Assembly (NCBI GenBank): GCA_021810375.1
Contig: JAJZJB010000001.1
Location: forward strand, 1 to 53,755
Source of the DNA: Candidatus Micrarchaeota archaeon
GTDB taxonomy: Archaea > Micrarchaeota > Micrarchaeia > Micrarchaeales > CABMGC01
DNA: 53,755 nucleotides
Reading direction: 5' to 3'
Part shown: positions 4,109-25,946 of the stretch, one piece after another
Position numbering within the stretch: position 1 is the stretch's first letter
Layout: every line of letters begins with the position of its first letter
The notes under the pieces: generated by a model
What the model saw: the letters and a program-made list of their open reading frames with translations, nothing else
Database searches by the model: none
What the model was told of the DNA's origin: nothing
Made by a program: the position numbers and the translations under genes

Positions 4109-4630
4109 ATGGGAGAATTATTGGAAGTTGTAGACGAAAAAGATAACGCAGTTGATATTCAGGATAGGGAGATAGTGCACTCATCGAGGCTATGGCACAG
4201 GCTTGCACACGTGCTCTTATACAACCAAAACGGGGAACTGTTGCTTCAGATGAGGGCGCCGAACAAGAAAGTATACCCAAATAAGTGGGATTGCTCCTGT
4301 AGCGAGCATCTAAAACCGAACGAGGCATATGATGTTGCTGCAAAGAGAGGCCTTGAAGAGGAACTTGGAATCAGGGAAATAGACCTAAAAGAGGTCCTAT
4401 ATTGTCGTGGGGATTACGGAGACGAAGGTAACGTGATTAGCAAAGTATTCGTCTGTAAGACAGATAAGACGCCAACTAGTATAGACACGGAGGAAGTGTA
4501 CATGTATAAGTTCTTCACCGAATCGGGTATCAAGAGGATGCTTGCCGATAATGAAGATGCCTTCGCGACCTGGGCAGCCGAGCAACTCAAATGGAAGCTT
4601 GGACTCCCTAACAAGCTTGAACTATTATAA
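4109..4630 (+). CDS. Nudix hydrolase
   Basis: Nudix-box-like SEHLKPNEAYDVAAKRGLEEELGI (Gx5Ex7REUxEExGU pattern with minor deviations); 173 aa. Confidence 0.7.
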   Translation: MGELLEVVDEKDNAVDIQDREIVHSSRLWHRLAHVLLYNQNGELLLQMRAPNKKVYPNKWDCSCSEHLKPNEAYDVAAKRGLEEELGIREIDLKEVLYCRGDYGDEGNVISKVFVCKTDKTPTSIDTEEVYMYKFFTESGIKRMLADNEDAFATWAAEQLKWKLGLPNKLELL

Positions 4631-5672: not shown

Positions 5673-6299
5673 ATGCGAATAGAGGATTTCTACAAAGCCA
5701 TGAAAATTACATTTGCCACAACGAACAACGTCAAATTCGACATAGCAAGGATAGTTCTGACCCCATATGGGATAGCATTAAACCAGAAGAAAATGGAGAC
5801 GCATGAGCTACAAGCTCTTGATGTAAAGGCTGTTGCATTAGATAAAGCCCACCAGCTAAGGCGGAGAATCAGTGGGCCTTTCCTTGTTGACGATTCGGGT
5901 TTTTACATACGTTCCTTGCATGGGTTTCCTGGAGCGCTTCTTAAGCTGACTTACGCTGCAATAGGTGATGTTGGCCTTTTGAGGCTCTGCAAAGGCCGCA
6001 ACCCAGAGGCGACGTTTGTGAACACGCTCGCTTTCAGCATGCCTGAATCAAAGCAGATTAGGATATTCTCAACGGTTATAGACGGTACGCTGTCAAAATC
6101 TGCAAAGGGCAGTAGAAAGGTGGGGTGGGCGATAGAGCGAATTTTCATACCGTCAGGCCATGCCAAGACAATAGCACAGATGGATAATACAGAATGGCTG
6201 TCCTTCTGGAATAGCTTCTCAAAAGCGTCACATTATGCACAACTTGGAAAGTGGCTAGTTAGAAATAAAGGCAATAGCGTACATAGTCACCAGTCATAA
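5673..6299 (+). CDS. Non-canonical purine NTP pyrophosphatase (HAM1/RdgB/ITPase family); the likely true start is the ATG at 5700 (MKITFATTN)
   Basis: ITFATTNNVKF, DDSGF and GFPGALLK are typical ITPase motifs. Confidence 0.75.
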   Translation: MRIEDFYKAMKITFATTNNVKFDIARIVLTPYGIALNQKKMETHELQALDVKAVALDKAHQLRRRISGPFLVDDSGFYIRSLHGFPGALLKLTYAAIGDVGLLRLCKGRNPEATFVNTLAFSMPESKQIRIFSTVIDGTLSKSAKGSRKVGWAIERIFIPSGHAKTIAQMDNTEWLSFWNSFSKASHYAQLGKWLVRNKGNSVHSHQS

Positions 6300-6373
6300 C
6301 GGCGTAGTTATCCGGAGATGATGAACAATATTTCTATAGAAATATTTATATAGATTATTATCTATAGATAATT

Positions 6374-6958
6374 ATGCAGTATAAGACAATAATGCTTGAC
6401 AGGGAGGGCTATGCGAGGCTTGCGCAGGCAAAGAGGGTGCTGCGCAGGAGGTCGGGGCTGAAGCTGAGCTTCAATGACGTAATAGGCGAGCTTGCCGGCC
6501 ACCGGCTGGAGTTTTCCGACATGGATGAGGAACTGAGAGCATACATCATGGAATTCGCAGGCAAGGCGGCGAAGTTGGAGCAGGTGGAGGGGGTGCTGCT
6601 CTTCGGATCGGTGGCGAAGGGCACGTACAACGAATACAGCGACATAGACGTGCTAATAGTTGCAGGGGATGGGAAGGTAGTAGTCCTTAAAGAGATACTT
6701 GGTCTCACTGCAGGCCTGGCTAGGAGGGGCCGCAAGCTGATGGAGCGGGGCATGCCATCTCTGATCAGCCCGGTCATACTCAATGCGAGGGATCTCAGGG
6801 AGTTCAGGCCCTTCTACTTTGACTTTGCGGACTATGGCATGATCCTGTATGAGAGAAATAATATCCTTACTGATTTCATATACTCGATCAGGAAGATGAA
6901 GCACAGACGTGAGAGCGTAAACAACGTTGAGGTAATCACGTGGCAAGGCAGCCAATAG
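6374..6958 (+). CDS. Minimal nucleotidyltransferase (MNT) with an N-terminal RHH-like extension; partner of the HEPN protein
   Basis: The signature LLFGSVAKGTYNEYSDIDVLIV matches GSxxxGx..SDxD. Confidence 0.8.
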   Translation: MQYKTIMLDREGYARLAQAKRVLRRRSGLKLSFNDVIGELAGHRLEFSDMDEELRAYIMEFAGKAAKLEQVEGVLLFGSVAKGTYNEYSDIDVLIVAGDGKVVVLKEILGLTAGLARRGRKLMERGMPSLISPVILNARDLREFRPFYFDFADYGMILYERNNILTDFIYSIRKMKHRRESVNNVEVITWQGSQ

Positions 6959-8062: not shown

Positions 8063-8845
8063 TCAGGCAGTCTTCTTGGGCTTGAAATGCCTTGAATCAA
8101 TAAGTATCATGTGGAAGTTGCTGTCGTATCCGAGCGATGACTTGAAGATCTCGGGATCAAGCGTGATTGTGTTGTCTGAATATGGATCGTTGATGTAGAA
8201 CGCGTCCTTATCATAGCCCTTAACCACAACCCAATGCGGCGATGACTCCATGTAGGGGTTTATGGTATTTGCATCGATGAGCACTATTGGTATGTTATTG
8301 CCTGAGAGCGCCCGCTTTATGCTGTTTATTGTGACAACGCTGTGGTCCTCCTGAACATTCTGCGCCTGTGCCTTTGCCTTTATCTCATTGTATGAAGCGG
8401 TTAGGGTGTCCAGGTTTATGTTCTCGTATACTGCAAGCTTTCTGTCATAGCCCTCTTCCTTCATGTTGCTCACTATAGAGACCCCGGCTCCGCGCTTTGC
8501 GAGCGCATATGCCAAGCCATACTTGGATCCGTGCCATACGCTACCGTTGACTGCTTCCTGCCAGATGTCATACTCGTGCTCTTTCTTGAACTGGAAATTC
8601 TTGTTTATGTACTTGAGTACCATCATGGCGCATGCGGCGCTGCTAGTGAAGTCCTCAGTCTGAGGGTAATGGGGTATGTCGAACATGACCTTGTCCTTTA
8701 TCTTTGAGCCGCTTTTGGCCTTGGCGACTCTGCTTGCAGCTGTCTTCTTGACATGCTTTGCCTGCTTCCTCTGTCTCTTTGAGGAGTTTCCACTAATTCT
8801 CTTTGAGTTCTTACTTGACTTTTTTGTCGGTTTTGCCATGTTCAT
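8063..8845 (-). CDS. Peptidase C39-like (papain-fold) cysteine protease with a Lys-rich N-terminal tail
   Basis: Candidate catalytic residues are Cys in TSSAACAMMVLKY, His in SPHWVVVKGYD and Asp in YINDP. Confidence 0.55.
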   Translation of the reverse strand: MNMAKPTKKSSKNSKRISGNSSKRQRKQAKHVKKTAASRVAKAKSGSKIKDKVMFDIPHYPQTEDFTSSAACAMMVLKYINKNFQFKKEHEYDIWQEAVNGSVWHGSKYGLAYALAKRGAGVSIVSNMKEEGYDRKLAVYENINLDTLTASYNEIKAKAQAQNVQEDHSVVTINSIKRALSGNNIPIVLIDANTINPYMESSPHWVVVKGYDKDAFYINDPYSDNTITLDPEIFKSSLGYDSNFHMILIDSRHFKPKKTA

Positions 8846-9118: not shown

Positions 9119-10567
9119 TTGATGTTCATGGACATTGAGAAAACCGGAGATGTGAGGTACAGGCTCTCGAGAGAATCGCAGCAGGGCATGAACAACGACG
9201 TCTCTGTTTATGCTTCTGAGAGTCTAATGCAGAAGATAAAGAACGATCACACGCTGCAGCAGGCGATGAATACTGCTACGCTTCCCAGCATAGCAGGAGA
9301 TGTACTCGTAATGCCAGATGGTCACGAAGGATACGGATTTCCCATAGGAGGGGTGATAGGCTTTGATGCTGAGAACGGAGTGGTATCCCCGGGAATTTGC
9401 GGCTTCGATATCAATTGCGGCGTGCGACTGATAAAGACGGATCTTACGGAGAAGGAAGTTGGATCAAGGATAACGCATCTCTCTGATGCCCTATTCAAGA
9501 ACATTCCCGGAGGCGTGGGCAGTAGACTGAACATAGGACTTTCCCCGAGAGACCTTGAGAAAATAGCGAGTGAAGGTGCAGGGTATATAATAGGCAAAGG
9601 ATTCGGGCTTCCAGAGGACATAGAGCATACCGAAGAGAATGGCTGCATGTCCGGAGCCGACTTCTCCAGGGTGAGCCAGATGGCCAAATCGCGGGGGTTC
9701 AATGAGCTCGGCACTCTGGGCGCAGGAAATCACTTTCTAGAAGTGCAGAGGATAGGCAAGATATTTGATGAGGGTGTGGCTAAGGCATACGGACTTCACG
9801 AAGGCCAGATAGTGGTAATGGTGCATACGGGTTCCCGCGGTTTCGGGCACCAGATATGCAGCGACTATCTAAGGATATTCGAGGAATACAGGATAAAAAA
9901 GGGTATCTCGCTGGTTGATAAGGAGCTCTGCTACGCGCGGGTAGGAGACAAGGAAGCCGAGGATTACCTTGGCGCTATGAAGTGCGCCGTCAATTTTGCT
10001 TTCACGAACCGGCAGATAATAACCAATTCCATAAGGAAGAGCTTTGAGGAAACATTCTCAAGGAGCGCAGACTCGATGGGCATGGAAATGTTATATGACG
10101 TGGCGCACAATATAGTGAAGCTTGAGGAGCATGAGGTGGATGGAACCAGGATGCGCCTTTATGTCCACAGGAAGGGAGCTACGCGGGCTTTCCCGAAAGG
10201 GAGGGCGGAGATACCGGTAAAGTACCGCGGCGTGGGGCAGCCTGTGCTTATACCAGGGAGCATGGGCACTGCAAGCTATGTCTTGGTAGGAAAAGAAGGC
10301 TCTATGAGAGAAACGCTGGGCTCTGCCTGCCATGGAGCCGGACGCGTGATGTCGCGCCACCAGGCCCTGAGGGAGATACCTGCAGAGAAGACCTTTGATT
10401 CGCTGAAGCGCAAGCGGGTCGAGATACGCATACGCACACGCAAGCTGGTGAGCGAGGAAGCCGAATGGACTTACAAGGATATAGATGAGGTAGTCAGGGT
10501 AGTTGAAAAGGCAGGCATTGCTGCGCCGGTCTCCAGAAATATTCCAGTGGCCGTAGTCAAGGGCTAG
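9119..10567 (+). CDS. rtcB: RNA 3'-phosphate ligase RtcB (tRNA-splicing ligase)
   Basis: PDGHEGYGFPIGGV, GAGNHFLEV, HTGSRGFGHQ and ACHGAGR. There is no intein. Confidence 0.95.
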   Translation: MMFMDIEKTGDVRYRLSRESQQGMNNDVSVYASESLMQKIKNDHTLQQAMNTATLPSIAGDVLVMPDGHEGYGFPIGGVIGFDAENGVVSPGICGFDINCGVRLIKTDLTEKEVGSRITHLSDALFKNIPGGVGSRLNIGLSPRDLEKIASEGAGYIIGKGFGLPEDIEHTEENGCMSGADFSRVSQMAKSRGFNELGTLGAGNHFLEVQRIGKIFDEGVAKAYGLHEGQIVVMVHTGSRGFGHQICSDYLRIFEEYRIKKGISLVDKELCYARVGDKEAEDYLGAMKCAVNFAFTNRQIITNSIRKSFEETFSRSADSMGMEMLYDVAHNIVKLEEHEVDGTRMRLYVHRKGATRAFPKGRAEIPVKYRGVGQPVLIPGSMGTASYVLVGKEGSMRETLGSACHGAGRVMSRHQALREIPAEKTFDSLKRKRVEIRIRTRKLVSEEAEWTYKDIDEVVRVVEKAGIAAPVSRNIPVAVVKG

Positions 10568-13983: not shown

Positions 13984-14026
13984 GGTAACTAATTTATATT
14001 GAATCTTTGTATTTATAGTGGTTGCG
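13984..14026. promoter_or_regulatory. Compact divergent promoter region with two TATA-like boxes (AATTTATATT at 13991-14000, TATTTATA at 14003-14010)
   Basis: Each box lies about 24-30 nt from the start codon on the opposite side (flpA 13983, kinase 14027). This implies near-leaderless transcripts. Confidence 0.35.
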
Positions 14027-19545: not shown

Positions 19546-19672
19546 GATACCATCCCTGCTGTTGTCCTCGTGTTTATACGCCGCGGAGAGGCGCAGTGAA
19601 ATGAAGAACAATGCAATTCAATTTAGCCACATTCATGTTATTATCTCTTTTCATCTTATCATTATTGGTCTT

Positions 19673-20836
19673 ATGCTCGACGAACAGGGCATCTCGTTTG
19701 TAAAGAAGCTCATCTCCGACTACTATAGGAGCAGCTACAGGATCGGGCCGGACAGGATGGAGCAGCGCGAGTTCGGAGCGGGAAACTTCGAGAGGAAGAT
19801 TGCGTTCAGGCACCTCTCATTTCCAAATTCTGAAGAATTAAGGAGGTACCTCGTCAGGGAGTCGCCGCCCTACGTATCATATTCTTCGTCGTATTACAGA
19901 TTCCCGGCAGGCAGGCCGATGGAGGCAAAGGGGTGGTTGGGCGCGGAACTCGTCTTCGATCTTGATGCTACTGACATAAATTTACCATGCCAGAAAACGC
20001 ACGGGAGGGGATGGGTCTGCAGGAACTGCCTGGACTCCGTAAAGGCAGAGACGATAAAGCTGGTGGACGAGTTCCTAATTCCGGATTTTGGCTTCTCTTC
20101 CGGGGAGATTAGCATAAACTTCAGTGGAAACAGGGGATACCACGTGCATGTCAGCGACAAGGCTACATACTCGCTCAATTCCGCGGAAAGGAAGGAGATT
20201 ACAGATTATATAGCAGGCATAGGAGTGGAGATGCAGGAATTCTTCCCCACGCTAGGCATGAGAGGCAAATCGCTTACCGGTCCCAAGCCCTCAGACAAAG
20301 GCTGGGCGGGCAAGATGGCAAGGCATTTCCTGGCAATAATGGATAAAGGAACAGACGCCATGATGGAGCTTGGGATAGACAGGCAGACGGCAAACATGAT
20401 ATATAAGAAGCGAGCGCTGATACAGCTTGGCATAAACAGCGGAAACTGGGACATGGCATACATAAAGAACAAGGCAGACTTCTGGAAAAGGATACTCGAG
20501 AATCTCACTATAAAGCAGAGCGACAGGATAGACAGGAACGTTACCAATGACACATCACACCTGATAAGGCTACCAAACACGATACACGGAGAGACAGGGC
20601 TCATTGCAAAGGTTGTTGGCCGTGTATCTGACCTGGAGAGGTTTGACCCGATGAAGGATGCGATAGCCTTCAGGAGAGGCGAGATGAAGATATCTGCAAA
20701 TACGAATTTCGAGATATACATGAACGGACTGAGGTTTGGACCTTATGGCGGAAACATAAAAGTGCCGATCTATGTAGGTATTTATCTTTATCTGAAAGGA
20801 TATGCAAAGTTACTCGAGATGCCTCAGACAAAGTAA
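19673..20836 (+). CDS. priS: DNA primase small (catalytic) subunit PriS
   Basis: ELVFDLDA, GNRGYHVHV and RLPNTIHGETG. The start is set at the internal ATG at 19673 because the upstream part of the ORF overlaps the mutase gene. Confidence 0.9.
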   Translation: MLDEQGISFVKKLISDYYRSSYRIGPDRMEQREFGAGNFERKIAFRHLSFPNSEELRRYLVRESPPYVSYSSSYYRFPAGRPMEAKGWLGAELVFDLDATDINLPCQKTHGRGWVCRNCLDSVKAETIKLVDEFLIPDFGFSSGEISINFSGNRGYHVHVSDKATYSLNSAERKEITDYIAGIGVEMQEFFPTLGMRGKSLTGPKPSDKGWAGKMARHFLAIMDKGTDAMMELGIDRQTANMIYKKRALIQLGINSGNWDMAYIKNKADFWKRILENLTIKQSDRIDRNVTNDTSHLIRLPNTIHGETGLIAKVVGRVSDLERFDPMKDAIAFRRGEMKISANTNFEIYMNGLRFGPYGGNIKVPIYVGIYLYLKGYAKLLEMPQTK

Positions 20837-20848
20837 AGATCAATGAGA

Positions 20849-20892
20849 TATTGCAACTATATTATGTTGCTGTAAGAATTCTTCTTGTTTTA
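20849..20892 (+). repeat. Direct repeat copy A (38 of 44 positions identical to 25300-25343), immediately after the priS stop
   Basis: TATTGCAACTATATTATGTTGCTGTAAGAATTCTTCTTGTTTTA versus TATTGCAACTATAGTATGTTGAAGTAAAGATTCTTCTTCTTTTA. Weaker similarity extends about 15 nt on each side. Confidence 0.8.
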
Positions 20893-21042
20893 GCTCTGAA
20901 GAAATGCTAATACCGCATTAGAATCGTAATGCCCCATAAAGAATGGTGAATACCGATAGTAGACCTTGTTTGCTATTAGGATGAACACCGTATTTGCAGT
21001 GAAGGTTCAGTATCGCTGATCAGAGAGCATAGGTACGCAAAA

Positions 21043-24000
21043 TTATGGACTGGCTGATGAAGGCAGCAATGCGGCCTCTACCGAAACGTATGAATCAGCA
21101 GCCTGGGAGATACCAGATATGGTGTAGGTTCCAGATGGTTGTGACTTGCAGTATGCGATTGCAACAGTTGCTGTGCCTGATGTACCCATACCCTCGGAGA
21201 CCTGAGTCTGACAATCAGATGGGAATGTGATTGATGTGCATGTGAAATAGCCGCATGCAGCAAGAAGAAGAACGTTCGAGGTTGACGGGAGTGTGTAACT
21301 TGAGGAGAAGCTTCTTACTCCGTTGAATGTTGTTGGGGAATTTATAACATTGTAGCTGCCTGCGGTTATTCCGTTGAAGCCCATAATACCAAGGACTTGC
21401 CATTCTGATTTGGTGCTGGTGGCTGTGCATGTGGGTGATGTCTGGCTGCCTGAAGAAGCATACCCATGCGATGTCACTATGTCATTGCTCCAGCTGTATG
21501 ATGTCATGGGATAGTTATAGTTTGCACCTGCACAGAAGTAGAGGCTGCAGCCTGGGGATGCGGATACAAGACCGTACCCTGTCTCACCGAAAGTGCAAGA
21601 TGCAGCAGTGACTGTAACCACGCTTGGCACGGAACATGTTCCGATGCTGGTATCGCATGATTCCATCACGTAATCGCCCGTGGCAAGTCCGTTGAGTGGG
21701 TATGACACAGTGGTTGTGCCTGTTGCAACGACATTGTTAGGAGTACATGTGGTCCCGGAGCAGTCTTTTATGTCCACCGTGTGCCCTGTTAGGGTTGTTG
21801 CACCGATTGCATTGTCGTCTGCAGCACCTTGAGGTAGTGAATTTCCAGAGGAGAAGGTGAGTGTTGGGGGTATGCCCCCGCTGCCGCTGAGGAGTGCGGC
21901 TTCGACTGAGAAGTATACGTTTGGATTCACTGATGGTGTTGTGCCTGATATAGTGTAGGTGCCAGATGGTTGTGACTGGCAGTATGCGATTGCTACTGTA
22001 GCGTTATTGGTGTTGCCTACATTCTCTGAAACTTTCGAAACACAACCTGATGGGAATGTGATTGATGTGCATTGAGTATAACCGCATGCAACAAGAAGAA
22101 GAACGTTTGAGGTTGATGTGAGCCCATAACTTGAGGAGAAGTTAGTACCTGTTCCAGAGTTGCCTCCCGTTCTGTTGAATGTTGTTGGGTAATTTATAAC
22201 GTTGTAGCTTCCTGCGGTTATTCCGTTGAAACCTATAATTCCTATAACTTGAGAGCCTAATCCGCCGCTGTTAGCCGTGCATGTAGGTGATGTCTGGCTA
22301 CCTGAGGAGGCAGAATTAGAAGAGGTTACTACATCATTGCTCCAACTGTATGATGTCATGGGATAGTTATAGTTTGCGCCTGCACAGAAGTAGAGGCTGC
22401 AGCCTGGGGATGCGGATACAGAACCGTATCCGGTCTCACCGAAAGTGCAAGATGCGGCAGTGACTGTAACCACGCTTGGCAGGGAACATATTCCGATGCT
22501 GGTATCGCAGGATTCCATGACGTAATCGCCCGTGGCAAGTCCGTTGAGTGGGTATGACACAGTGGTTGTGCCTGTTGCAAGGATGTTGTTAGGGGTGCAT
22601 GTGGTCCCGGAGCAGTCTTTTATGTCCACGGTGTGCCCTGTTAGGGTTGTTGCACCGATTGCATTGTCAGTTGCACCTTGAGGCAGAGAGTTTCCAGCTG
22701 AAAAGTTGAGTGTTGGAAGTATGCCCCCGCTGCCGCTGAGGAGTGCGGCTTCGACTGATATTTCCGCAAGATAGTATTCTGCGGTGCCTGATATAGTGTA
22801 GGTGCCCGGTGGCTGCGATGAGCATAATGCTATTGCAACGGTTCCGTTATATGAAGTGCCTATATTTTCCGAGACTAGCATCGGACAGCCGGCTGGGAAT
22901 GTAATTGATGTGCATGGAGCCCCACGACCTTCACCGCATGAGACAAGAAGAAGAACGTTTGAGGTTGATGTGAGCCCATAACTTGAGGAGAAACTACTGC
23001 TTACTCCGTTGAATGTTGATGGGGAATTTATAACGTTGTAGCTTCCTGCGGTTATTCCGTTGAAGCCTATAATTCCAAGAGCTTGCCATTCTGGGCCGCC
23101 TGCGTTGTCGACCGTGCATGTGGGTGATGTCTGGCTGCCTGAAGAAGCATATGGGGGTGGTGATGTTACTACGTCATTGCCCCAGCTATATGATGTCATG
23201 GGATAGTTATCGTTTGCGCCTGCACAGAAGTAGAGGCTGCAACCTGATGCAGCAGTCAGTGTGTTCGAGCCGATATTTCCTGCTGAGTCGCAGTATAGCG
23301 TTGACGACTGTATCGATGGCATTACTGTAACTGCATATGTCTTCGAATATGCGAGTGCATTGGCATCTTCGGCCTCGAAGACATAGTTGCCGATGGCGAG
23401 TACGTTGAGGTTGAATGACGCAGTGGTTGTGCCTGTTGCAATGACGTTGTTAGGAGTGCAGGAAAGGCCAGTGCATGATAGTATCTTCACGGTATCTCCG
23501 GTTGCGGCAGTGGTCCCTACTGCGTTGTCTGTTGTGCCCTGAAATATCGAGGTGCCGTTGGAGAACGTGAGTGTCGGTATGGAGCTGCCGCTGCCGCTGA
23601 GGAGTGCGGCTTCCACTGAAACTTCCACGTAAGGAGCTGCTGCGGAGCCCGATATGGTGTACGTGCCCGGTGGCTGCGAATAACATAATGCTATTGCAAC
23701 GGTTCCAAAGTTGTCAGCATTCAGATTTTCCATGAGCAATGTCTGGCAACCGGATGGGAATGCGATTGATGTGCATTGATAATTGCCGCATGAGACAAGA
23801 AGAAGGACCTTTGATGTCGATGAGATACTGTAGCTAGAGGAAAACCTGCTGCCTGTTCCGTTGAATGTTGTTGGGGAATTTATAACCTTGTAGCCACCTG
23901 CGGTTATTCCGTTGAAGCCTACGACTCCGAGGCCTTGATATCCTATTGATCCGTAGCTGACAGCGCTGTTATTGACAGCGGTGCATGTGGGTGATGTCTG

Positions 24001-25260
24001 ACTGCCTGAAGATGCGTATTTGAGTGCTGTCAATGTATCGATGTTCCAGCTGAATGATGTCATCGGATAATTCCAATTTGCGCCTGCACAGAAGTAGAGG
24101 CTGCAGCCTGGGGATGCGGATACATAATCATATCCGATGCTGCCTACTGCTGCGCAGTATGGAGCAGGAGGGGATGCGGTGTACGTTGCTACAACCGTAC
24201 AGTTGTAGTTCACTGCAATTATGCCATATGGACTTGTTTCCTCGCATCCAGACACTACAGGATTTGATATGGTAAGGCCGTTGGTTGCCGTAAGGGAATT
24301 TGCAAAGATGTACGTGTCCCTTGCAGTAGATGATATAGGTATAGAGATAGGGAGCTGGCTGACTGTATACACATTTCCGTTCACAGTAAGGATGCTCCCA
24401 TTTATGCCCATCGTGTTGACTGCCTCGAACGTTACCATGGTACTTGAAACAAAATCAATTACTACATTTGCAGAATAGCCGGAGAAGTTGGCGTAGACGA
24501 TGTCATTGCCTGGAGTATAGCTCAAGATGTAACTGGTTGCAGTCCCTTTGGAGTCCGTGGCCTCCTTTGACGGGCTGATGACGGGAAATGATTGATTCTC
24601 GGTGAAATTGATCCCAGCACCCTGATAAGGATTGCCTAGCAGGTATACACTTGCAGTAAGTACGTCTTCCTGCCCACTTGCAATTTGTGTAGTATTCTGT
24701 GCAGATAATGAGATGGAGAATGGAGTTGGGGAGATTACAGGTTGGACGTGAGTTACGGCTGAACCAGATATTGTCTCATGCGATCCGCGGCATGTCTGCT
24801 GTGACTTACCTTTAGTGCACACCGTTTCTTTTACATAGAGATCTGATGAGACTGTTGTTCCCTGTCCGTATGTGCTCGGAACGGTTACAGTGCAGATAAT
24901 CGAGCCACCGGGCAGAACAAATGAGGGTGTGCATGTACCAGTTACATTGCCACTGTTTTGAGCATTTATGATAAGGCTAGGTCCGTTGATAGGATACTGC
25001 TGCGCGTTTGAGAGTACTATTACGACTGATGAACTTGCAGTATTGCTTCCGAAGACCATGTCCTTGCATGAGAGCGCGGTAGATATGATACATGTTGAGG
25101 GCGCAGCGGTAGAGGAAGTGAGTCCCAGCACGACTATGACTGCCAGAGCAGCGACAATTATGAGCAGCGCCCAGCCATACGTTACAAGATATTCCATTGC
25201 AGACTGAGCAGTTGTACTGCCAGATCTTGGAGATTTGTACCTTTTTTGATGCCGAGACAT
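21043..25260 (-). CDS. Giant (1405 aa) surface protein: class III signal peptide/type IV pilin-like N-terminus, pilin-like Cys domain, Ig-like region, then four tandem ~285-aa Cys/Ser/Thr-rich repeats
   Basis: N-terminus ..RSGSTTAQSAMEYLVTYGWALLIIVAALAVIVVLGL. GCSLYFCAG recurs at residues 385, 673, 953 and 1237. The frame is uninterrupted. Confidence 0.8.
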   Translation of the reverse strand: MSRHQKRYKSPRSGSTTAQSAMEYLVTYGWALLIIVAALAVIVVLGLTSSTAAPSTCIISTALSCKDMVFGSNTASSSVVIVLSNAQQYPINGPSLIINAQNSGNVTGTCTPSFVLPGGSIICTVTVPSTYGQGTTVSSDLYVKETVCTKGKSQQTCRGSHETISGSAVTHVQPVISPTPFSISLSAQNTTQIASGQEDVLTASVYLLGNPYQGAGINFTENQSFPVISPSKEATDSKGTATSYILSYTPGNDIVYANFSGYSANVVIDFVSSTMVTFEAVNTMGINGSILTVNGNVYTVSQLPISIPISSTARDTYIFANSLTATNGLTISNPVVSGCEETSPYGIIAVNYNCTVVATYTASPPAPYCAAVGSIGYDYVSASPGCSLYFCAGANWNYPMTSFSWNIDTLTALKYASSGSQTSPTCTAVNNSAVSYGSIGYQGLGVVGFNGITAGGYKVINSPTTFNGTGSRFSSSYSISSTSKVLLLVSCGNYQCTSIAFPSGCQTLLMENLNADNFGTVAIALCYSQPPGTYTISGSAAAPYVEVSVEAALLSGSGSSIPTLTFSNGTSIFQGTTDNAVGTTAATGDTVKILSCTGLSCTPNNVIATGTTTASFNLNVLAIGNYVFEAEDANALAYSKTYAVTVMPSIQSSTLYCDSAGNIGSNTLTAASGCSLYFCAGANDNYPMTSYSWGNDVVTSPPPYASSGSQTSPTCTVDNAGGPEWQALGIIGFNGITAGSYNVINSPSTFNGVSSSFSSSYGLTSTSNVLLLVSCGEGRGAPCTSITFPAGCPMLVSENIGTSYNGTVAIALCSSQPPGTYTISGTAEYYLAEISVEAALLSGSGGILPTLNFSAGNSLPQGATDNAIGATTLTGHTVDIKDCSGTTCTPNNILATGTTTVSYPLNGLATGDYVMESCDTSIGICSLPSVVTVTAASCTFGETGYGSVSASPGCSLYFCAGANYNYPMTSYSWSNDVVTSSNSASSGSQTSPTCTANSGGLGSQVIGIIGFNGITAGSYNVINYPTTFNRTGGNSGTGTNFSSSYGLTSTSNVLLLVACGYTQCTSITFPSGCVSKVSENVGNTNNATVAIAYCQSQPSGTYTISGTTPSVNPNVYFSVEAALLSGSGGIPPTLTFSSGNSLPQGAADDNAIGATTLTGHTVDIKDCSGTTCTPNNVVATGTTTVSYPLNGLATGDYVMESCDTSIGTCSVPSVVTVTAASCTFGETGYGLVSASPGCSLYFCAGANYNYPMTSYSWSNDIVTSHGYASSGSQTSPTCTATSTKSEWQVLGIMGFNGITAGSYNVINSPTTFNGVRSFSSSYTLPSTSNVLLLAACGYFTCTSITFPSDCQTQVSEGMGTSGTATVAIAYCKSQPSGTYTISGISQAADSYVSVEAALLPSSASP
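21046..24165 (-). repeat. Intragenic tandem repeat array, four units of ~840-865 nt (the last is truncated)
   Basis: TGCACAGAAGTAGAGGCTGCA recurs on the + strand near 21531, 22381, 23221 and 24085. The spurious + strand ORFs at 21429, 23118 and 24054 are paralogous. Confidence 0.9.
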
Positions 25261-25299
25261 GTAATGATAGTATACGAGAAAGTTAAAGATTTAAAAAGG

Positions 25300-25343
25300 T
25301 ATTGCAACTATAGTATGTTGAAGTAAAGATTCTTCTTCTTTTA
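25300..25343 (+). repeat. Direct repeat copy B, inside the divergent promoter region between the giant gene and rpl15e
   Basis: See copy A. Confidence 0.8.
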
Positions 25344-25367
25344 AAGAAGATGACGGCAGGTGAACGC

Positions 25368-25946
25368 ATGGGAATCTATAAACATATAGACAGAACTTTC
25401 CAGGATGAGTACAAGCAGAGAGGCGAGCTCCTGAAGAGGAGGATAACGCAATGGAGGGACGAGCCGTCCGTCAACAGAATTGAACGTCCAACCAACATAT
25501 CGCGCGCAAGAAAACTCGGCTACAAGGCAAAGGAGGGCGTAGTGATGGCCCGGGTCAAGGTCGAGAGGGGGCTCAGGAAAAGGAGAAAGATGCGCGGAGG
25601 CAGAAAGCCTTCGAAGAGTGGCAGGTTCTATGCGTATAGGAAGTCATTGCAGTCAATGGCTGAAGAGAGAGCAGCAAGGAAGTTCTCAAACTGCGAAGTG
25701 CTCAATTCATATTTTGTAGGACAGGATGGCTCGTACAAGTTCTTCGAGGCCATACTCATAGACAGGTCACACCCTGCAATAGCTAATGACCCGTATTATT
25801 CGCAGGTGCTGCATAACAAGGGCAGGGTCTACAGGGGATTGACAAGCTCCGGAGTGAAGCATAGAGGAATGCGCATGAAGGGCTTTGGCACAAAGAGGAA
25901 CCGGCCTAGTGTAAGATCAAGCCAGCGCGGGATACTCAGGGTCTGA
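25368..25946 (+). CDS. rpl15e: 50S ribosomal protein L15e
   Basis: MGIYKHIDRTFQDEYKQ..., YKAKEGVVMARVKVERG and RGLTSSGVKHRG. Confidence 0.95.
   Translation: MGIYKHIDRTFQDEYKQRGELLKRRITQWRDEPSVNRIERPTNISRARKLGYKAKEGVVMARVKVERGLRKRRKMRGGRKPSKSGRFYAYRKSLQSMAEERAARKFSNCEVLNSYFVGQDGSYKFFEAILIDRSHPAIANDPYYSQVLHNKGRVYRGLTSSGVKHRGMRMKGFGTKRNRPSVRSSQRGILRV

Follow-up and report, generated by a model that had tools for sequence, protein, structure and literature searches.

We analyzed a stretch of 53,755 nucleotides (in the following, the window) from a Candidatus Micrarchaeota archaeon. In this stretch a giant surface-protein gene is located between priS, the gene of the small subunit of DNA primase, and rpl15e, the gene of a ribosomal protein, and is bracketed by two copies of a 68-nt direct repeat. 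The source organism is a DPANN archaeon, a tiny symbiotic member of the Micrarchaeota. The window is contig C27 of its genome G000, a metagenome-assembled genome (MAG) of 601 kb in 33 contigs which is about 64% complete. For comparison 41 relatives were searched; the G-numbers stand for genomes of the same genus and family. The nearest separate relative is G004 (Candidatus Micrarchaeota archaeon MAS1.bin34, JAJZKP01), a separate species-level MAG.

According to Pfam, the gene order at the locus is phosphoglucomutase (PGM, minus strand), priS, the giant gene (minus strand), rpl15e, Pcc1, a pentapeptide-repeat protein and L3. priS (19601-20836, plus strand) matches PF01896 with an E value of 4e-23. 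Its start is placed by the gene caller at 19601 or 19673, and the respective calls of 411 and 387 aa occur on identical contigs. The upstream copy of the repeat, copy A (20825-20892, plus strand), was delimited by alignment and supplies the end of priS, as the terminal codons and the stop (CAG ACA AAG TAA, 20825-20836) fall within it. It is followed by a relic which resembles a miniature inverted-repeat transposable element (MITE; 20893-20937, plus strand) and by a spacer (20938-21042) which reaches to the stop of the giant gene, is unmatched in a genus-wide DNA search and belongs to no Rfam family. The giant gene (21043-25260, minus strand) is an open reading frame (ORF) of 1405 aa with internal repeats and a weak match to the Pfam domain Big_1. 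Between its ATG and copy B there is only a short spacer (25261-25274), poorly conserved between G000 and G004. Copy B (25275-25343, plus strand) is predicted, from the genus-wide conservation upstream of rpl15e, to comprise the rpl15e core promoter together with the initial ~20 nt of its leader. The remaining leader, with a Shine-Dalgarno-like AGGTGA, and rpl15e itself (PF00827) follow at 25344-25946 on the plus strand.

Two copies of a 68-nt unit

A sequence-only reading of this DNA had proposed a direct repeat right after the priS stop and right before rpl15e. This repeat is real. Repeat finding returned an ungapped core of 47 nt with 85% identity (20846-20892 versus 25297-25343), and a gapped local alignment of the two copies extends over 68 columns with two 1-nt gaps and 80.9% identity (about 20825-20892 versus 25275-25343). 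The alignment score of 40.5 lies about 15 standard deviations above that of 500 shuffles (12.2 +/- 1.9, maximum 20). When the window was searched with the 21-mer TATTGCAACTATAKTATGTTG allowing up to three mismatches, solely the two repeat sites matched, with 0 matches expected.

The unit is not a motif that recurs at many promoters. A BLAST search with both copies, covering all 33 contigs of G000 (601 kb), did not reveal a third one. Genus-wide, the unit was detected upstream of rpl15e only, plus copy A in G000 and G004, and each relative genome in which it was detected has one unit, except for an additional rpl15e contig binned with G004. Pattern scans of the genome collection with an 18-mer were set aside, as the pattern is too short and yielded almost exclusively chance matches; the sole true relative among these was the G004 contig. 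The arrangement is identical in at least 10 independent assemblies and is also present in G004, and therefore it is not an assembly artefact.

Weaker similarity had been noticed on both sides of the repeat, and here the two sides differ. The upstream extension (AAGTAAAGAT / AAGTTAAAGAT) belongs to the unit, its score being matched by just 8 of 1000 shuffles. Downstream, where GAAGAAATG had been compared with GAAGATG, the collinear alignment scores 10, which is the level of the shuffles (10.0 +/- 1.7), and the bases concerned belong to the MITE-like relic. A duplication reaching into the rpl15e coding start was therefore rejected. The GAAGAAATG with its 5-codon ORF, which had been taken for a copy of the rpl15e start, turned out to be the tip of the terminal inverted repeat of the relic.

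Empty sites and strain alleles

That priS and rpl15e were once neighbours is borne out by the relatives. The two genes are adjacent, 50-170 nt apart and with a single unit between them, in seven relatives (G006, G009, G003, G008, G001, G023 and G014), and they are likewise adjacent with a single unit in a near-identical strain with a 99.7% identical left flank, described below. The giant gene together with both unit copies is found in G000 and G004 only. In a tree of priS and L15e these two genomes form a clade with 99% support, which is nested among empty-site lineages; this nesting implies that a single gain on the G000+G004 stem would suffice. Copies A and B share states (ACTATAxTATGTTG..GTAA) which are found in no single-copy orthologue. 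Thus, the copies arose from each other inside the insertion lineage.

Other lineages carry other cargo at this junction, namely a phosphodiesterase gene (G005, L032), the 3' end of which overlaps a remodelled priS end, an ORF of 133 aa (G002, L034), and two ORFs including inositol monophosphatase (G018, L042). None of the insertions in G005, G002 and G018 has flanking repeats. In G006 (L033) the junction contains a 75-nt filler, and no homology to the G000 insert was found for this filler or for the G005 flanks. In G010 (L038) priS is not adjacent to rpl15e. Separately, we note a patch of high identity between G000 and G004 at window positions ~20760-20870. It covers the last ~70 nt of priS with the first ~45 nt of copy A and reaches ~95%, as compared with ~79% for the 68 nt of priS before it and ~90% for the whole region. 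The patch of high identity could stem from a newer exchange between the lineages or from local constraint.

To find alleles, public assemblies were searched for exact protein matches. The insertion allele, with identical copies A and B, is present on at least 10 independent contigs. An empty-site allele occurs in two independent assemblies, GCA_021804105.1 and ERZ27237063, on the contigs JAJZKP010000025.1 (7089 nt, binned with G004) and k141_553644, respectively. Over window positions 13984 to ~20735 its left flank shows 99.7% identity, and the encoded proteins are 100% (PGM) and 99% (priS) identical. Scattered differences start at ~20600. In place of the allelic island of the window (20740-25380) the empty-site strain has ~150 nt of much more divergent sequence, made up of the priS 3' end (...MPIP and stop), one unit and the rpl15e start. 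Further on, identity with the window is 96.8% over the first 155 nt of rpl15e. The single unit aligns leftward with priS and copy A and rightward with copy B and rpl15e. Copies A and B are more alike to each other than either is to this unit or to any single-copy orthologue. The unit of the empty allele is not a hybrid of A and B, and consequently the allele did not arise by recent excision. It seems to be old or imported and would have been exchanged by homologous recombination in priS and rpl15e.

An identical PGM is found on nine contigs, five of which carry the insertion and two the empty site; the remaining two are broken inside priS near the point where the alleles diverge. Such breaks are expected if both alleles coexist in one sample. 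Another strain, 99.85% identical overall, shows nine differences within 22 nt (25359-25380), that is in the rpl15e ribosome-binding site and first codons. Its version is common to G004, G005 and the empty allele, and so the version of the window (MGIYKH versus MGMYQH) would be the derived patch. This cluster is further evidence for short recombination tracts which appear to end at the rpl15e start. Judged from these contigs, the locus behaves as a strain-variable island at which insertion and empty alleles coexist in one species.

The duplicated promoter and the giant gene

We aligned the region upstream of rpl15e from eight genomes. The alignment reveals a conserved module consisting of CGAGAAAG...ATTAAAAAGGTATTGCAAC.TATATTA, a T-rich run, AAGAAGATGACGG, a ribosome-binding site of the GGTGA type and ATGGG, and this module is by all its features a predicted archaeal core promoter with leader. 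ATTAAAAAGGTATTGCA is kept upstream of rpl15e throughout the genus. Copy B has the upstream element CGAGAAAG, the TATA box TTTAAAAA at 25291-25298, an initiation region and the leader start with the T-rich run. The box TTTAAAAA, an A/T-rich 8-mer at a fixed distance from the gene, stands after the purine-rich AAAGA and is conserved in the genus as ATTAAAAAGG. Copy B is the predicted live core promoter of rpl15e.

Copy A (TCAATGAG) does not have the makeup of an archaeal core promoter. Its TATA box is destroyed, reading TCAATGAGA instead of TTTAAAAAGG, and the same loss is found in G000 and G004. The differences between the copies cluster in the TATA box, with 5/10 positions changed there versus 6/44 downstream (Fisher p = 0.02).

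In three more distant relatives (G008, L037; G001, L039; G023, L040) the rpl15e TATA box lies within the last priS codons (YLYLKG = TATTTAAAAGG). The overlap of the priS and rpl15e signals thus appears to be old. As to the translation start of rpl15e, homologues align from residue 4-7, and the 192-aa product is recorded in 12 contigs, the 198-aa product not being on record. On the basis of these alignments and public gene calls the start is most likely ATG 25368 (MGIYKHI...), ATG 25350 being an in-frame upstream ATG. A conserved hairpin in the rpl15e leader was considered and set aside, since its 7 pairs display nearly no covariation.

The giant protein starts with a basic leader, behind which come QSAMEYLVTYGWALLII, a putative head of the archaeal pilin type, and four ~284-aa repeats, which correspond to four internal repeats of ~852 nt in the gene. 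The motif MSRHQKRYKSPRSGSTTAQSAMEYLVTYGWALLII was seen by eye in the N-terminus. A Pfam search with the first 150 aa gave no match at E<=0.01. The giant gene is a member of a large paralogous family: G000 itself has 12 matches, and none of the 41 relatives searched is without one. The N-terminal residues ~17-100 match many paralogues across all of these relatives. The GC content of the gene is typical of the genome. A donor locus was looked for and discarded, as the best paralogue outside G004 is just 59% identical over partial length and sits on a truncated contig. The G004 protein shares 88% amino-acid identity with that of G000.

How could this gene be expressed? Its leader peptide is in frame in G004 and resembles the leaders of the paralogues. 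This indicates that ATG 25260 is the true start and that the promoter must lie upstream, where only 14 nt separate the ATG from copy B. The distance from the copy B TATA box to the ATG is 29 nt in G000 and 31 nt in G004; the spacer sequence differs and the spacing is kept. On the minus strand this TATA box reads TTTTTAAA and begins at -37 from the ATG. A/T-heptamers upstream of long ORFs of G000 peak at -31..-27 and at -40..-36, so TTTTTAAA falls in a favoured window of this genome. Reading the sequence of G000 and G004 upstream of the ATG did not disclose a second TATA-like box at a usable distance. The giant gene is most likely driven from the antisense side of the copy B TATA box, which would give a near-leaderless mRNA.

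There is a precedent in Pyrococcus furiosus, where a single archaeal TATA box is transcribed bidirectionally with start sites 49-50 bp apart (PMC6640164). The two cases are alike in that a quasi-symmetric box lies about midway between divergent starts, the predicted starts being ~50 bp apart in our case. They differ in the product: the Pyrococcus antisense products are mostly taken as noise (PMC6640164), whereas here the antisense side is predicted to drive an inserted protein-coding gene of 4.2 kb.

Origin of the insertion

The insert had been thought to carry only the giant gene, which is not the case because the MITE-like relic is part of it. By BLAST, pattern and model searches 20893-20937 matches an element that recurs in further genomes of the genus and family, namely in G001 (twice), G002 (twice) and G013. 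The relic consists of the 5' terminal inverted repeat (A/G)GCTCTGAAGAAAT and ~30 further nt, and contains the GAAGAAATG with the 5-codon ORF mentioned above. A possible degenerate 3' end is at 21018-21028; none is convincing. The family has 1-2 copies per genome in several Micrarchaeota (G001:C15:15590-15724, G001:C20:13251-13305, G002:C13:9543-9598, G013:C22:89671-89709). Complete copies are ~136 nt long with 14-nt inverted ends GGCTYTGTAGAAAT...ATTTCTACAAAGCC, and on contig C15 of G001 the complete copy has a perfect target duplication of 8-9 bp, CTCATAGC(G), on its two sides. The family has the properties of a MITE: it is non-coding, has inverted ends and a target duplication, lies in unrelated flanks and has its ends in common with a longer insertion sequence (IS). 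This parent IS shows the MITE tip followed by a differing interior at four or more contig ends of G001, where it is unassembled; its ends are GGCTCTGTAGAAAT.

The relic in the window has no target duplication of its own. Its outer tip coincides, within 1 nt and without microhomology, with the inner edge of copy A. We note this coincidence, and our account of the mechanism does not rest on it. At window position 5676-5699, directly before the ATG (5700) of the next gene, there is also a solo 3' end of the MITE element (GAGGATTTCTACAAAGCC).

Two other readings of the MITE motif were rejected. It is not the left end of a TnpB element (IS200/605): between PCNA and Trm1 in G001 (contig C15) a copy does lie within the left end of a decayed TnpB element, as a separate insertion with its own 8-9-bp duplication. 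Nor is it a structured RNA, as there is no Rfam match and the long-range 'closing helix' is simply the pair of inverted repeats. The decayed TnpB element itself (L253, ~6000-6750) encodes a 118-aa zinc-ribbon fragment (PF07282). In G000 the PCNA-Trm1 site is empty (C15:3034-3297), and a single TnpB-like open frame of 347 aa is found at C25:12619-12810.

We consider it probable that the structure is the scar of one lineage-specific duplicative insertion, which placed the giant gene between priS and rpl15e and duplicated 68 bp of the target. This agrees with the proposal of a ~4.4-kb insertion with a target duplication of ~60 nt, as the unit measures 68 bp and is present in single copy at empty sites, and the tree points to one gain.

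We suggest that the insertion proceeded as follows. In the ancestor the priS stop would have been a few bases upstream of the rpl15e TATA box, leaving no spare sequence between the two. A segment of ~4.38 kb (20893-25274) with the giant gene on the minus strand would have been inserted on the common branch of G000 and G004. We infer that the duplication took place in the same event. The duplicated 68-bp target would comprise the complete rpl15e core promoter and the first third of the leader, and owing to this duplication both essential neighbours would have stayed intact. Copy A would still provide the last codons and the stop of priS, and copy B would still drive rpl15e. The giant gene would have arrived without a promoter of its own and most likely uses the antisense side of the rpl15e promoter. 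Later on copy A would have lost its TATA box, perhaps as an active copy A would transcribe antisense across the giant gene; otherwise it would drift, copy B being conserved. Finally, insertion and empty alleles would now be swapped through homologous recombination in the flanking priS and rpl15e. A single duplicative insertion is what the evidence supports, and several routes to it are conceivable: a break staggered by 68 bp and then filled in, a template switch during replication, or a tandem duplication followed by insertion would each give this structure.

Several points weigh against this scenario. To our knowledge a target duplication of 68 bp is far longer than those made by known transposases, and the MITE family at the junction makes duplications of 8-9 bp. 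The empty allele diverges strongly in its ~150-nt middle, which means that the insertion allele does not descend directly from it. As to rates, copy A has changed at 6 of 53 nt between G000 and G004 and copy B at 4 of 54; copy A is thus not measurably faster, and the claim that it is neutral rests mainly on the loss of its TATA box. Finally, the two copies could derive from two sister genomes and not from one duplication.

The last point leads to a serious rival, to which we give a small share of the probability. By one-sided homologous recombination (homology-facilitated illegitimate recombination) DNA of a sister strain could have been joined to the chromosome, copies A and B coming from two genomes. 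The donor would have had the MITE relic and the giant gene at the rpl15e promoter. Homology in rpl15e and beyond would have served one end, and the other end would have been joined illegitimately after ...TTTTA of the promoter unit of the recipient. This explanation is serious because recombination tracts demonstrably end at the locus: in the empty allele ~150 divergent nt stand between flanks of 99.7% and ~97% identity, and the differences clustered at 25359-25380 in the 99.85% identical strain are of the G004/G005 type. It would also fit that the end of copy A meets the outer tip of a foreign element exactly, without microhomology. The process has been described for three naturally competent bacterial species and for E. 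coli during conjugation (PMC3240628). In these bacteria, as would be the case here, one side relies on homology and the other is illegitimate, and a duplicated anchor can be left behind (PMC3240628); moreover, the tracts at our locus end in rpl15e. The descriptions are however from bacteria, and in the literature examined we found no documentation for archaea. The donor arrangement is hypothetical, as an earlier association of the giant gene with the promoter but without priS is required and none was present among the 41 genomes searched. The derived states unique to A and B would furthermore demand that donor and recipient were nearly the same genome.

Very unlikely, in our view, is that the repeats are attL and attR, the attachment (att) sites of an integrative element which targets the rpl15e promoter and whose recombinase acts in trans or was lost. 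An att-like scar had been among the suggestions of the sequence-only reading, and we cannot support it. As in integrase islands, direct repeats of tens of bp (here 68 nt) bound a discrete, strain-variable cargo, and the priS-rpl15e junction has received different cargo in at least three other lineages (G005, G002, G018). Unlike in such islands, however, there is no recombinase gene in or beside the insert (the ORFs being priS, the giant gene, rpl15e, Pcc1, the pentapeptide protein and L3), the target is not a tRNA gene and the three other junction insertions are without flanking repeat. The site is not reused: save upstream of rpl15e, no replicon or locus of the genome or genus was found to have the att-like sequence. 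The empty allele is not an A/B hybrid and nothing points to excision. The cargo, for its part, is a single gene of a chromosomal family with a GC content typical of the genome.

Still somewhat less likely is capture by a transposase, in which an IS or MITE mobilised the adjacent giant gene in a one-ended or aberrant transposition and the long duplication arose as a by-product of repair. As at the targets of transposable elements, host direct repeats bracket the insert, occur in single copy at empty sites and decay. The location of the relic tip within 1 nt of the inner edge of copy A, and the lack of a target duplication of its own, are compatible with this idea. So is a second gene with a putative pilin head in G000 (C5:9306-10856, 516 aa), directly 3' of which there is a ~115-nt remnant of an end of the parent IS pointing inward (C5:9168-9290). 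Most transposases, however, give target duplications of 2-15 bp, and the family itself gives 8-9 bp, as compared with 68 bp here. It had been noted earlier that no integrase or transposase lies between the repeats; this is correct insofar as there is no such ORF, yet the trace of a mobile element is present. The insert has no inverted ends, as only one of its ends abuts an element tip; the right border (25261-25274) is on reading the sequence unlike the inverted repeat. No flanking duplication was found at the C5 pilin-headed locus, and genus-wide the matches to the inverted repeat are not on contigs carrying other members of the giant-gene family. Finally, solo relics are scattered in intergenic DNA, for example at 5676-5699 of the window, so that a later MITE insertion with partial deletion explains the junction equally well.

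That there was no insertion at all, the similarity being due to a shared regulatory motif, chance or mis-assembly, can practically be dismissed: both copies do lie in intergenic, A/T-rich, promoter-like DNA, but there are just two of them in 601 kb with a score ~15 standard deviations above shuffles, copy A is without the TATA box, the one part promoters would share, the structure recurs in at least 10 assemblies and a second species, and empty sites exist.

The locus is a genuine insertion scar and belongs to known kinds of event, namely target-duplicating insertion and the exchange of a flexible island via flanking homology. No new kind of mobile element or system is revealed. As in flexible or replacement islands for surface proteins there is presence and absence within a species and exchange by recombination in conserved flanking genes; unlike these, the island here comprises a single gene, lies between two core information-processing genes and involves a promoter duplication. 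The locus offers a clean and datable case of the addition of a host-interaction surface gene to a streamlined symbiont genome with two essential neighbours left unbroken, and both alleles still segregate in nature. It is a natural experiment on promoter duplication and the decay of one copy, on whether the antisense side of an archaeal TATA box can be put to productive use, and on how recombination adds and removes surface proteins in Micrarchaeota.

A wider idea starts from the ultra-compact DPANN genomes, in which signals of adjacent essential genes can overlap, as at this locus, where the priS stop falls within the rpl15e promoter. New genes might then enter such junctions only via duplication of the signal block, and a recurrent mechanism, possibly linked to the IS or MITE, would install variable surface-protein genes. 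We regard this as a doubtful generalization. If it were true, copy A would keep the end of the gene and copy B the promoter, and the antisense side of a strong ribosomal-protein promoter would allow immediate expression of the newcomer. In that case a specific mechanism, and not a one-off accident of repair, would have left the 68-bp duplication as its signature.

Other repeated sequences were seen elsewhere in G000. Contig C29 has four intergenic copies of a ~65-nt element CATCGCCAGRTGCACAGTATGCGCCACGGGCGCATCTCCGACAAGGAGG (999-1061, 4479-4564, 8389-8457 and 9894-9968), which comprises two hairpins, with a T-run after some copies, and resembles a repeated terminator or an element of the repetitive extragenic palindrome (REP) type. 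On contig C30 a 138-nt sequence is present in two copies with 93% identity (1654-1789 and 4341-4477), located after the stop codons of two paralogous ATPase-like genes which are mutually just 32% identical. This sequence has a strong predicted fold (-42 kcal/mol) and a TATA-like box at its end.

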